Shown here in pieces: positions 28,530-42,403 of a stretch of 64,000 nt of DNA. Origin of the DNA: Bacteroidota bacterium (lineage in GTDB: Bacteria > Bacteroidota > Bacteroidia > Chitinophagales > Saprospiraceae); contig JBCBQC010000031.1 in NCBI GenBank assembly GCA_039820405.1, positions 511 through 64,510 on the forward strand. The letters are read 5' to 3'. The stretch's first letter is position 1, and each line of letters starts with the position of its first letter. Both the position numbers and the translations under genes were made by a program. The notes beneath the pieces are model-generated. The model worked only from the letters and a program-made list of their open reading frames with translations, did no database searches and was not told where the DNA came from.

Positions 28530-30296
28530 CTATGAGCCGTTTTTAGGGCCCTGTGGCGGCGGGGTGGTAGCCAGGTCAACCCATTCGGCCCACCTGAGGC
28601 CTCCGTCCAGTTGGTGGGTACTAAATTCCAGAAAAACCAACCGTTGTGGCCGCTGTTGTCCCCCTTTTTCTGGTTCGAGGGCGTGTAAGATCATGGGGTG
28701 GAACACGTGGATTCCGCCCTCGGGGACGGTACAAACCTGGGGAATGGAGTTTTGACTGATGGTAGCGATGCCCTCGGCTTGGTGGCGTAGGCGGTGGGAA
28801 CCCGGGAGGACTTGGAGGGCGCCGTGGCCCGTATCGCTGGGGTCGAGGTGGATGCGGAGGCAAAAACGGCCAAAGGCGATGGGATCGGGCGGGCAAACTT
28901 CAAAGCCATCCGCCGTCTCGAACCAGTCGCGGTAGCCCCGAACGGCCTTTTGCTGTGCCACCTTGATGCGTTGGTGTTGCCGCCACTGAGTGTCCCCCGC
29001 GATGCGTTTCCCTCGCTCGTAATAAATGGCCCGGACGCAGTGGGCCCCCGGCGCAATCGTTTCGACGATTTTTTGCAGGTTGGGAGTCCAAAGTAGGGTC
29101 GGGAGCTGTGGAAGTTGCTCGAACAGTGCGGGGAGCGTTGTGGCCTCGATGGACCGTTCGTCCCGGTAAGTCTCGATCAATTTCCGAATTTTTTGTACCT
29201 CCCGCCGGGAGTAGACTTTCCGCAGGACGTAGCTGCCCCGAAATTCCAAACTTTTATGCAGGCGGCGGAGGCTTTTTTCGTTGAGCTCGTTATCATAATG
29301 CTCGGCGGCGTCCCTCAACCTTTGCTGGATGGATCGACGCAAGCGCTCCGGGGCGAGCACGGTGACCCCTTCCCCAAAGGATAGGATCTCCTTTTCCAAT
29401 TCAAAATTGTGACGTACCCGTAGGGCGAGGAGGATGCCGTAATAATCGCGGCCCACCTCTTCCTGGCTCCAGTGGAGGGGTTTGGTGAGCAAGTAAGGGG
29501 CCTGCCGGTGTTGCACGCGGAGCAGCACCTCCTGGATTTTGAGTCCGCCGTTGACGGTGACGCCGATGTTGTGTTTAAAATGCTCGGCGGGGGAGAAGTG
29601 GGGACTGGACTCGAAGGGGGCGGTACTGGGCTGGAGGTCCTGCATCCGGTCGAGGGCCAGGTTGATGACCGCCGCGCGGTCGGGGCGCTTGCCGATCAGG
29701 AACCAGCGGTTTTTGTATTCCTTGAGTAGGTAGGGGGAAAAGTCGAAGTGCTGGGCCTGGCGGGCTTTAAAGGATTGGTATTGGATGTGGAGGACCCGCT
29801 TATTGAGGATGGCCTGGTAGAGGGCGTCGAGGTATTCGAGCCCACGGAGGTTGTCGTTTTTTTCAAAGTCGATGACCGGTCCCTGTTGCTCCTTCTGGGA
29901 ATGGACGTGGTCTTCGAGCTTTTGCACCATGCCCCCCAATTCCCGAAAGTGCGAAAAGCCCCGGAACTGTTTGAGGAATTCGACCACCTCGGTCAGCTTG
30001 TGGAGGTCCTGATCGGTGAGGGGAATATTGGTGATGCTGTAATCGGGATCGGCGTAGGTGTAGTACTTGCGGTCCCGGACCACGATGGGGGCACGGTAGC
30101 CCAGTTTGTCGCTGCGCATCATTTGGATATCGCTCTGTACCGTTCGCCGGCTCACCCCCTTTTCGATACCTTCGTATTCGTACAAAGCCTCGGAGCAGGC
30201 CTCGATCAAGTCTTCCAAGGTCCAGTTGCGGTAGCGGTTTTGCAAACACTGGTCGATGGTTTTGTAGCGGATGAGGGCATTGCGATTGACCGGCAT
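28530..30296 (-). CDS. HTH-WYL transcriptional regulator fused to a PhyH-type Fe(II)/2-oxoglutarate dioxygenase domain
   Basis: The N-terminus MPVNRNALIRYKTIDQCLQNRY is a winged helix. The WYL core is NRWFLIG...NLALDRM. The C-terminal 230 aa carry the PhyH signature IHLDPSDTGHGALQVLPGSH plus a distal His. I placed the start at the MPVNRN ATG (30296). The longest ORF would start at 30380. Confidence 0.6.
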   Translation of the reverse strand: MPVNRNALIRYKTIDQCLQNRYRNWTLEDLIEACSEALYEYEGIEKGVSRRTVQSDIQMMRSDKLGYRAPIVVRDRKYYTYADPDYSITNIPLTDQDLHKLTEVVEFLKQFRGFSHFRELGGMVQKLEDHVHSQKEQQGPVIDFEKNDNLRGLEYLDALYQAILNKRVLHIQYQSFKARQAQHFDFSPYLLKEYKNRWFLIGKRPDRAAVINLALDRMQDLQPSTAPFESSPHFSPAEHFKHNIGVTVNGGLKIQEVLLRVQHRQAPYLLTKPLHWSQEEVGRDYYGILLALRVRHNFELEKEILSFGEGVTVLAPERLRRSIQQRLRDAAEHYDNELNEKSLRRLHKSLEFRGSYVLRKVYSRREVQKIRKLIETYRDERSIEATTLPALFEQLPQLPTLLWTPNLQKIVETIAPGAHCVRAIYYERGKRIAGDTQWRQHQRIKVAQQKAVRGYRDWFETADGFEVCPPDPIAFGRFCLRIHLDPSDTGHGALQVLPGSHRLRHQAEGIATISQNSIPQVCTVPEGGIHVFHPMILHALEPEKGGQQRPQRLVFLEFSTHQLDGGLRWAEWVDLATTPPPQGPKNGS

Positions 30297-30420
30297 AGAA
30301 ATTTTTTTACCAAAATTATCAATTATTTTTTTACTGCGCAAAAACACTGCGCAGTAGCCCTCCATCTTTGTATTGTCCATTGCGACGAGCCATTATATCG
30401 GTCAAAACCAAGCGCTCCAA

Positions 30421-42000: not shown

Positions 42001-42403
42001 CGCTAGGTGAGGGTGTTTCTTTTAAGGCCTGGGGCAGGGCGGTAAATAGGGCTTGTAGCTTGCTCAGGAGGGCCGCGCGGTGGGCGGGGCTCAGGCGCTC
42101 CGCTTGGGGAGCACCGGCCGTATCGGCCGCCGCGGCTTCGCGAGCGGGATCAGTGGCCTCCTGGATGCTCGCGCGGTAGCCCTTTTTGGTTTTGGAATCC
42201 ACCAGTTTTTGGAAGATCGTCCGGGCCTCGGCTTCGCCGACGGGGAAGTCGGTCCGCGTACCGCTTTTGAGGGCGCGCCCCCGGCGGCCGTAGCGAAAGT
42301 TGACGAGAAACTGATCGGGCCCCACTTCGCACAAATCCACCTCGTAGAGTTTGTCGGATTTTTCGTCGCGGTAGTGTAATTGTATTTGTTGGACCAGTTT
42401 CAT
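39029..42403 (-). CDS. WGR-domain protein with a long helical-repeat region (DUF4132-like)
   Basis: The N-terminal WGR domain runs KLYEVDL...FLVNFRYGRRG...TIFQKLVDSKTKKGY. It is followed by 1000 aa of alpha-helical repeats. The gene is paired with a downstream SWIM gene, which is a common two-gene cassette. Confidence 0.6.
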   Translation of the reverse strand: MKLVQQIQLHYRDEKSDKLYEVDLCEVGPDQFLVNFRYGRRGRALKSGTRTDFPVGEAEARTIFQKLVDSKTKKGYRASIQEATDPAREAAAADTAGAPQAERLSPAHRAALLSKLQALFTALPQALKETPSPSVTTDPESGEGPRAVTRDNSVWNIFRRLTGGNARDKDTPSSNIPRFNSSKDPNSREKRSLSRLVWRMGELHFADGVPFLLKIASTFDPQLTYSLVWALGRCGDARALPKLLEIEANCTPDSALYHLVQEAKLALLDGPERETFLRRVHDQLPLAYRDALRTDDAEAAIRSAIEDELTNAKQAYHSIAQLYLLASGQATVHRALLRWCGEVSFRGGGYFKSLRQLYKAAEFRNDFRLLGTLAYQIEKQPAFFDHSPYRGLRLDGQWVRIAQEIKHPQSRVGFSRQTKAYLTRRTWRNLYRKGQVGDPNYVPLAVAILLSFSDADEKNTFSTTRYEYGRDANGNWYSNAIKTFFSPFASWSVFNEILYRNSPRYRRANGRHQWIYRDSHTALSPLPAEREEAFPELWDRQVAGLLHLLAESRSRVVHEFAVKAARANLAAVLPLIDADFLSLLLSKEYKVSTQFGLELARQWYRADEPSIPLLQALLRCSLAEARQQGMEWVDDQKERFFQAADFIAPLLFSPWETVSEWLDHSLTALTLPETVQTTTITRAIGRMNEADQQSDATERRCLLQAGQLLEKHFPSLLYHASFQLVQHLLSHPLAEVQNFGARILLHHQSPPESWPDGLLLGLINGSIPDLRRTGVELLNRFSDESLFGQLDLIVGLCLSPHAEVRRAVLPLVDRLIRREARVGDTLCGELAPHLLRKENAPGRDADLIELLTVRLGTYLGSIGRQRALQLLFAPRKAAHAVGQHYLQHFADGSELTLRQIVKLGDNEMRAVREWVWQYYREQRERMIAELGEAVRLMDAKWADSRDFAFDYFRREPTEEDWTPEIVVSICDSVQPAVQQFGQEMITRYFKRENGEQYLLQLSQHPSPSLQQFASNYLERFAADRPEHMEQLRHYFYAVLAGVNKSRVAKKRIFAFLQQEALKSERSARLVAEVIGRQSATFSIEDKARCIQILLDLRQHFPDLDLPLRIHDYAPYAGRTEISNP

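Follow-up and report, generated by a model that had tools for sequence, protein, structure and literature searches.

Do the RNA-repair genes and the retron that lie against each other in a 14-kb block of a Bacteroidota genome form one defence system, or are they two systems that share a neighbourhood? The block occupies 28.5-42.4 kb of a 64-kb stretch of contig JBCBQC010000031.1 (hereafter the window, meaning the whole stretch analyzed), which comes from a metagenome-assembled genome of a Bacteroidota bacterium, and its genes were assigned by Pfam, PADLOC and NCBIfam. An earlier note on this DNA had read the block as an island with three kinds of element, all of them under a WYL regulator. The gene content stood, and Pfam and PADLOC searches recovered every listed gene in its place, but the grouping gave way to two units: an RNA-repair operon at 28530-35209, in which the WYL gene is divergent from the rest, and an intact type XIII retron at 35294-42403 on the minus strand. 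The block consists of two distinct, already-known kinds of system side by side, and it is probable that they are autonomous, namely a WYL-controlled RNA-repair operon and a complete type XIII retron that happen to abut. For comparison, we used fetched genomic loci (denoted by L-numbers; 3.4 Mb in total), of which tens were sampled for neighbourhood contexts, and a set of type XIII retrons comprising 80 species loci from a genome scan. Exact copies of the retron reverse transcriptase (RT) were found on six contigs, e.g. GCA_038526685.1, and the arrangement was identical on all of them.

Type XIII retrons are defined by a clade-10 RT, a cluster 114 protein with a DEDE motif, a winged helix-turn-helix (wHTH) and a SWIM domain, and a cluster 216 protein with WGR and HEAT/ARM regions (Mestre et al. 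2020, PMC7736814). The RT in the window (35294-36838, minus strand, 514 aa) matched Pfam RVT_1 and the PADLOC model RT_XIII (1.2e-188), the latter over 7-458 of 469 model positions, which places it in retron clade 10. It is convergent with rtcB at a distance of 84 nucleotides (nt), and its homologues are 36-61% identical across the 80 species loci and 77% identical in the close relative L171. Further upstream on the same strand lie a SWIM protein of Mestre cluster 114 with the DEDE motif, wHTH and SWIM domain (37380-39017, 545 aa; PADLOC SWIM_XIII, 2.3e-236; Pfam SWIM), whose open frame spans 37380-39140 while the gene-caller start gives 39017, and a WGR and HEAT/ARM protein of Mestre cluster 216 (39029-42403, minus strand, 1124 aa; PADLOC WGR_XIII, E = 0; Pfam WGR and HEAT_2). 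WGR/HEAT comes first, followed by SWIM, a tandem pair of msr-msd noncoding RNAs (ncRNAs) and the RT, and about 60 of the 80 type XIII loci keep this WGR-SWIM-ncRNA-RT order. When neighbouring open reading frames (ORFs) were clustered all against all, SWIM and WGR were the only recurrent families around the RT. Because the order is conserved and no other neighbour family recurs, we assign both proteins to the retron; what had been taken for a separate SWIM/WGR cassette is the retron's own pair of accessories, as their PADLOC type XIII matches and conserved order indicate. The retron is a further member of the known type XIII, which includes Mx162, Mx65, Sa163 and Ne144 (PMC7736814), and it resembles these retrons in its RT clade, its gene order, both partner proteins and an ncRNA that immediately precedes the RT. 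It differs from them in carrying a tandem pair of msr-msd units whose msd stems are not the same, in its Bacteroidota host and in its position against an RtcB operon.

The WYL regulator belongs to the other unit. The gene lies at 28530-30296 on the minus strand and encodes 588 aa from M29, as supported by Pfam, PADLOC and the gene-caller start. The domain order is an N-terminal wHTH, WYL (Pfam 2e-15; PADLOC WYL 1e-28), WCX (3e-11) and a C-terminal PhyH-like 2-oxoglutarate (2OG)-Fe(II) oxygenase domain with a weak match (1e-4). Its open frame extends to 30380, while gene callers begin 28 codons downstream with M29 at 30296, and the longer 616-aa ORF was rejected as the real gene length on the basis of the gene-caller start; the candidate operator falls inside this over-extended ORF. 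The candidate operator is a perfect 8-bp inverted repeat, ACTGCGCA-AAAACAC-TGCGCAGT, at 30333-30355 in the divergent WYL/DUF2828 promoter. In a full-palindrome scan, ACTGCGCA-N7-TGCGCAGT had a single match in the 64-kb window, against 0.02 expected, and 19 matches across the fetched loci (3.4 Mb), every one of them at an RNA-repair module of another genus; loci with WYL, RtcB and DUF2828 carry two copies each. Since the sole match in the window and all matches in the fetched loci are at repair modules, the palindrome is a strong candidate for the WYL operator and appears to mark the repair operon only. An HTH-WYL-WCX architecture together with a conserved palindrome at orthologous promoters points to a WYL-domain transcription factor. 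Known WYL regulators, such as PafBC, DriD and the CRISPR-associated WYL1 (Makarova 2014, PMC4012209), are alike in the HTH, WYL and WCX architecture and in having a divergently transcribed target operon with a palindromic operator, whereas here the target is an RNA-repair operon and the regulator is fused at its C-terminus to a PhyH-like dioxygenase.

The assertion that everything in the block is under WYL control finds support for one unit only. Control of the RNA-repair and RNA-binding module is supported by recurrent synteny with WYL and by the common operator palindrome. For the retron it is unsupported, because the retron is on the other strand, is convergent with rtcB and starts 12 kb from the operator; the full operator occurs once, at the WYL/DUF2828 promoter, and the retron has its own upstream region. 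A scan for sigma-70 promoters and terminators returned no more sites than in shuffled sequence, and Bacteroidota promoters differ from that consensus. The annotation of the block is thereby corrected in two places: the SWIM/WGR pair goes to the retron and the WYL regulator to the repair operon.

We read the two systems as separate because each recurs without the other and the operator lies at repair modules. RtcB, SPFH, WYL and DUF2828 were absent within 10 kb of the retron in about 75 of the 80 type XIII loci and in three extra Bacteroidota loci. Conversely, about 165 loci with DUF2828 or SPFH-RtcB from outside this species contained no RT, SWIM or WGR, and the WYL gene with the divergent [YrlA-like]-SPFH-RtcB module occurs without a retron in L251-L253. 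Several observations weigh against this separation. Three of about 20 Bacteroidota lineages (the window, L025 and L050) place the retron directly against a repair module. In Sporocytophaga L025, RtcB is convergent with the RT as in the window, with the operator 186 nt upstream of RtcB, and this RtcB, with 470 aa and 37% identity, is of a different, independent subfamily. The module of Flavobacterium L050 comprises tRNA-like, YrlA-like, SPFH and RNase T elements and an operator-like site, and it lies directly upstream of, and divergent from, the type XIII ncRNA-RT; its SPFH is 53% identical to that of the window, and its spacer did not align to that of the window beyond the tRNA-like core. Moreover, the WGR gene is preceded, 119 nt before its start, by an operator-like half-site, TTTTTGCGTA (42513-42522, minus strand). 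In other genera, the operator's left arm together with its A-tract has exactly this sequence, and TRCGCAAAAA has two matches in the window against 0.37 expected, the second being this copy upstream of the first retron gene. Similar positions were seen elsewhere, with the same 10-mer at -86 in L007 (2188-2197 and 2265-2274) and forms with one mismatch at -117 in L012 and -137 in L256. The element at 42513 may belong to the promoters in this retron subclade, or it may be a WYL half-site.

These observations are what a functional coupling of the two units would draw on, in which the RtcB/Ro60-like ribonucleoprotein (RNP) repairs or limits RNA damage caused by the retron, or in which both respond to a shared signal sensed by WYL. 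Such coupling is also favoured by the convergent RT/RtcB junction, which is kept in the relative L171 with a 76-nt gap (RT 77% and RtcB 91% identity). However, the great majority of type XIII loci and repair operons stand apart as described above, and the full-palindrome scan of the window gave no complete operator near the retron. The orientations also differ, being convergent in the window and L025 but divergent in L050. Pfam revealed no RNase domain, and the type XIII accessories are predicted to be DNA-binding and transposase-like (PMC7736814). We therefore regard coupling as possible but unlikely. That the adjacency is pure chance without biological meaning is very unlikely; most loci of either system do lack the other, but a rough estimate of direct adjacency under random placement in genomes of about 4000 genes is about 0.01-0.02, against the three of about 20 lineages observed. 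This frequency exceeds random placement, yet the same pattern is expected if conflict and stress systems cluster, which also counts against coupling. Returning to two separate systems, we consider their adjacency to be a lineage feature and at most a loose clustering of conflict and stress systems, not one regulon or one mobile island.

The mobility of the block was considered separately, as the earlier note had raised island mobility as a point to check. Retrons and RNA-repair systems are frequent in variable regions in general (see also the discussion in PMC7736814), and DUF2828 is frequent in phage contigs, both of which speak for a horizontally acquired mobile defence island of 14 kb. However, the GC content is 55-59% throughout the block, as in the flanks, with the exception of the RNA-rich spacer, and there is no compositional shift at its borders. 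No direct repeats flank the block, as a search for att-like repeats returned internal repeats only, and scans of the window found no integrase, transposase or bordering tRNA. The block is flanked by an M43 peptidase secreted by the type IX secretion system (T9SS) and a T9SS amylase, with the glyoxylate shunt, an M48 peptidase, an enoyl-CoA hydratase, PorP/SprF and a PKD adhesin at greater distance; the T9SS genes, the glyoxylate shunt and PorP are housekeeping neighbours. Synteny is also kept in relatives at about 70-77% identity: the left border with the order M43-WYL-DUF2828-SPFH is conserved in L088 at about 70% amino-acid identity, and the RT/RtcB junction in L171. In addition, type XIII retrons are reported to be largely vertically inherited (PMC7736814). 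The block is not a recognizable mobile island, and its horizontal acquisition as a mobile defence island is largely refuted, to the point that we give it hardly any credence.

The ncRNA of the retron, which the earlier note had rightly listed with the RT, is present in two tandem copies of about 190 nt each. The RT-proximal unit B lies at 36894-37083 (minus strand; nhmmer 7e-47) and the RT-distal unit A at 37135-37325 (minus strand), with 83% identity to unit B and a period of 242 nt. The 540-nt spacer upstream of the RT folds better than its shuffles (z = -8.1). In an msr-msd alignment of 13 units from 10 loci, 38 of the 49 consensus pairs showed compensatory changes, where such covariation counts, here and below, are influenced by the kinship of the aligned sequences. 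The consensus fold has three parts: a closing helix, the msr hairpin and the msd hairpin, which is long. Units A and B are nearly identical in msr, and their msd stems differ in sequence and both still pair. In the conserved 5' CUUGC, an invariant G is a candidate for the 2'-5' branched G that would prime msDNA synthesis. With the ncRNA profile, about 52 loci gave a match immediately 5' of the RT and in its orientation, mostly as a single copy; two or three copies were present in about 9 of these 52. Copy number was compared in the window, L003, L002, L007, L032, L008 and L030. Contigs with an identical RT carry one copy in L003 and two B-type copies in L002, and it is because such contigs differ in copies that the msr-msd array is seen to vary between strains. 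These multi-copy arrays, together with the recurrent but non-universal contact between type XIII retrons and repair operons, are relevant to what the oldest-known retron type does. The retron's own promoter would drive WGR/HEAT, SWIM, the two msr-msd RNAs and the RT; the RT would then make two msDNAs with different stems, which may assemble with the SWIM and WGR/HEAT proteins, and the output could be phage defence or a domesticated role.

Beside the type XIII set, we noticed NADAR or NUDIX genes immediately after a type XIII RT in Catalinimonas L254 (10595-11149) and Spirosoma L255 (10483-11112). These NAD/ADP-ribose-linked proteins may be lineage-specific retron accessories. Two Nostoc RTs (L075 and L078) were considered as type XIII and rejected, being without the ncRNA, SWIM or WGR. 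In these cyanobacterial loci (L075, 9341-13451; L078, 344-4431), a shorter retron-like RT is flanked by two tRNA-Met and a tRNA-Ile(UAU), and an SPFH gene downstream is 42% identical to that of the window, in a different RT/tRNA/SPFH arrangement.

What, then, is the repair operon made of? The first gene of its rightward arm encodes a DUF2828/DUF7788 protein (30491-32065, plus strand, 524 aa; Pfam and AlphaFold2/Foldseek), which is predicted to form a Ro60-like ring of helical repeats with a vWA domain. The AlphaFold2 model had a pLDDT of 81.7, and the best PDB matches in Foldseek were Ro60 (9nep_A), at full length with E = 1.6e-7, and the TROVE protein of a phage (9kop, TM-scores 0.50/0.55), both at 13-15% identity, followed by vWA/MIDAS domains. 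No TROVE model in Pfam and no PDB sequence matched the protein. The description of this gene as Ro60-like TROVE/vWA is thus borne out by the predicted fold and not by a sequence match, and we call the protein Ro60-like by its predicted fold only. The family is common in IMG/VR phage contigs (220 matches), often within tRNA arrays, and some phage DUF2828 genes lie at most 8 kb from an RtcB; it also has eukaryotic members. In the metagenomic lineages L094, L096, L097, L108 and L169, a WYL gene is divergent from an RtcB paralogue followed by DUF2828, and L093 has RtcB-DUF2828 with the operator. Because both WYL/SPFH/RtcB core modules and WYL-RtcB-DUF2828 arrangements occur, DUF2828 is an optional add-on to the WYL/RtcB core.

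Between the DUF2828 and SPFH genes lies a spacer of about 830 nt (32066-32896), which is non-coding, being gene-free and conserved with L088 at the nucleotide level. Its upstream part contains two copies of a hairpin RNA on the plus strand, at 32095-32155 (model R1, 60.3 bits, E = 1e-13) and 32243-32309 (59.0 bits, E = 2.4e-13). The hairpin consists of a basal stem, a GAA bulge, an AGAUUAC stem, an NN-CAGCA(A/U) motif, a loop, the 3' stem strand, a GU and the basal stem, where the 3' stem strand is GUGAUCU in copy 1 and GUAAUCU in the consensus. Aligning 15 hairpins taken from 10 species (11 loci) gave pairing at 96% of positions; compensatory changes were seen in 9 of the 12 pairs, against none of 500 shuffles. 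The covariance model R1 found 47 hairpin copies in bacterial DUF2828 loci, all on the gene strand and nearly all within about 1 kb, and 9 next to phage DUF2828 genes; the 64-kb window yielded exactly 2, and a 1.4-Mb control lacking DUF2828 yielded none. In L110 (3657-4050), the hairpin stem encloses a tRNA-like domain, which is the architecture of Y RNAs, with a protein-binding stem and a tRNA mimic.

An Rfam scan assigned the hairpins to no family at threshold; RF01414 (Dicty_Class_I_RNA) repeatedly scored 27-31 bits (for example 30.7), below the gathering score of 41.5. Hairpins from the window, L110, L109, L094, L091 and L113 share the GAU stem, the CAGCAA motif and the 3' CUG(U) with this family. 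The Class I RNAs of Dictyostelium (RF01414; Kjellin 2021, PMC7919456) are alike in their length of about 60 nt, a terminal stem starting with GAU, a CAGCAA(U) directly after the 5' stem strand, a variable loop and a 3' end in AUCUG(U), while the bacterial and phage hairpins add a basal stem and a GAA bulge and adjoin DUF2828 genes. The published partner of the Dictyostelium RNA is the RRM protein Rnp1A (PMC7919456). The hairpin RNA and DUF2828 may be a cross-kingdom RNA/protein pair, which we offer as a lead, not a result. A broader reading would take DUF2828 and its flanking hairpins as an undescribed Ro60/Y-RNA-like RNP that would be widespread in bacteria and phages, with an RNA related to Dictyostelium Class I and, in Bacteroidota, a WYL-operator regulon that sometimes touches type XIII retrons. 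No relevant paper in the literature searched mentioned 'DUF2828', and the survey of Chen et al. 2014 was limited to genomes annotated with TROVE proteins (PMC4201824). We consider this broader reading quite improbable.

The downstream part of the spacer contains a YrlA-like structured RNA with approximate boundaries of 32440-32660 (plus strand; Rfam YrlA core match). Its core, at 32532-32596, is a permuted tRNA-like fold with a T-arm, an anticodon-like arm and a D-arm, and at its 3' end a conserved AGAAGU...ACUUCU hairpin closes the RNA, with an A-rich tract behind it. The Rfam YrlA model gave 35.3 bits (E = 1.3e-4) against a gathering score of 69, and only the core matched (model positions 23-88). 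Thus, the tRNA-mimic ncRNAs of the earlier note exist as structured RNAs but score below the Rfam YrlA threshold, and the spacer holds the two non-Rfam hairpins in addition. YrlA-like matches were also found upstream of SPFH in L088, L252 (45.2 bits over the full model), L253, L251 and L050. Across the loci, the hairpins thus accompany DUF2828, and SPFH-RtcB is accompanied by the tRNA mimic. From the YrlA-like RNA to the SPFH start runs a conserved non-coding leader of about 235 nt (32661-32896, plus strand) with the motifs AGGAUACCG...UACUUU and AAACUAU, which are common to L252 and L251; it has no Rfam match. Intergenic positions of about 32398-32840, covering most of the leader, are about 76% identical to L088 in nucleotide sequence. 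This region could act as a leader or a riboswitch-like element, or encode a second small RNA.

The SPFH/Band-7 'slipin' gene (32897-33997, plus strand, 366 aa; Pfam Band_7 1.5e-32) follows. A 439-aa ORF starting at 32678 was ruled out, with gene callers starting at 32897 and the upstream sequence conserved as nucleotide sequence, and the 366-aa form is widespread in Bacteroidota. The protein had been described as an SPFH membrane scaffold; its Band_7 domain is clear, but no hydrophobic or transmembrane segment was predicted (maximum 19-residue hydropathy, KD19, of 1.22), and any association with the membrane may be peripheral. A viral-sequence scan with the SPFH protein found nothing. RtcB RNA ligase (34049-35209, plus strand, 386 aa; Pfam RtcB 7e-104 over the full model; NCBIfam RtcB-family matches) is the last gene of the operon. 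WYL, the YrlA-like RNA, SPFH and RtcB recur in Labilibacter, Chryseolinea and Roseivirga, and SPFH is directly upstream of RtcB in all three (L251-L253). Labilibacter has WYL, a gap and then divergent SPFH and RtcB; Chryseolinea has the same arrangement with a WYL-WCX-PhyH fusion; and Roseivirga has a tRNA-like array followed by SPFH and RtcB. What is shown for the repair operon is which genes it holds, that their synteny is conserved, that its RNA structures covary and that its candidate operator, a palindrome, is conserved as well.

The closest known counterpart of this operon is rsr-yrlBA-rtcBA of Salmonella under RtcR (Chen 2013/2014; Hughes 2020, PMC7790460). Both have a ring-shaped protein of Ro60 type (by predicted fold in the window), adjacent small RNAs including a tRNA mimic, RtcB in the same operon and a dedicated ligand-sensing transcription factor. 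In Salmonella, however, the latter is RtcR, a CARF/AAA+ activator of sigma-54, whereas here it is an HTH-WYL-WCX-PhyH protein with a sigma-70-type palindromic operator. Pfam and NCBIfam placed neither RtcA nor RtcR in the block, the Ro60-like protein is of the DUF2828/DUF7788 family with no Pfam match to TROVE and with its own hairpin RNA motif, and an SPFH gene stands between the RNAs and rtcB. By analogy, the repair operon would work like the Salmonella system, from which it departs in several features of membership; it would be the WYL-governed counterpart of the RtcR/Rsr/RtcB system in Bacteroidota.

Based on this analogy, and on homology and context, a sequence of steps can be proposed. 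The HTH-WYL-WCX(-PhyH) protein would bind the palindrome in the divergent promoter, and its WYL/WCX module would sense a nucleic-acid damage signal, upon which the repair operon is switched on. The transcript would yield the DUF2828 ring protein, its two cognate hairpins as analogues of Y RNAs, the YrlA-like tRNA mimic, SPFH and RtcB. The RNP could capture damaged or misfolded RNAs, RtcB would reseal tRNA or rRNA ends by joining 3'-P or 2',3'>P to 5'-OH, and SPFH may serve as an oligomeric scaffold. The operon supplies a concrete candidate operator sequence, a predicted Ro60 paralogue and a covarying RNA motif absent from Rfam, which offer testable handles on RNA-damage sensing in bacteria outside Proteobacteria and on the function of DUF2828 in phages and eukaryotes.

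Several minor observations concern single parts of the block. The PhyH-like domain of the WYL protein (28533-29303, minus strand) retains the HxD...H residues and aligns weakly to the oxygenase 4xaa; its role could be signal sensing or oxidative nucleic-acid repair. The WYL-WCX-PhyH fusion is also present in Chryseolinea L252 (1836-3566) and in L088, and in Flavobacterium L050 a free-standing PhyH gene (4235-5149) lies beside the SPFH module. Just past rtcB, the stretch 35313-35357 carries two 21-nt repeats in tandem (GGCCTGTCCCGATCYTTTTTC) that fold into terminator-like hairpins on the plus strand; they fall within the 3' end of the RT gene, which is convergent, and read-through of rtcB past them would be antisense to the RT tail. 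In Roseivirga L251 (4674-5544), a 1.9-kb gene-free gap upstream of SPFH-RtcB contains a YrlA-like element and an array of four unusual tRNA-like genes, whose inserts or variable regions are long. The sole tRNA in the window is a tRNA-Ile with the UAU anticodon, which is uncommon in bacteria, at 13220-13295, 15 kb from the block.

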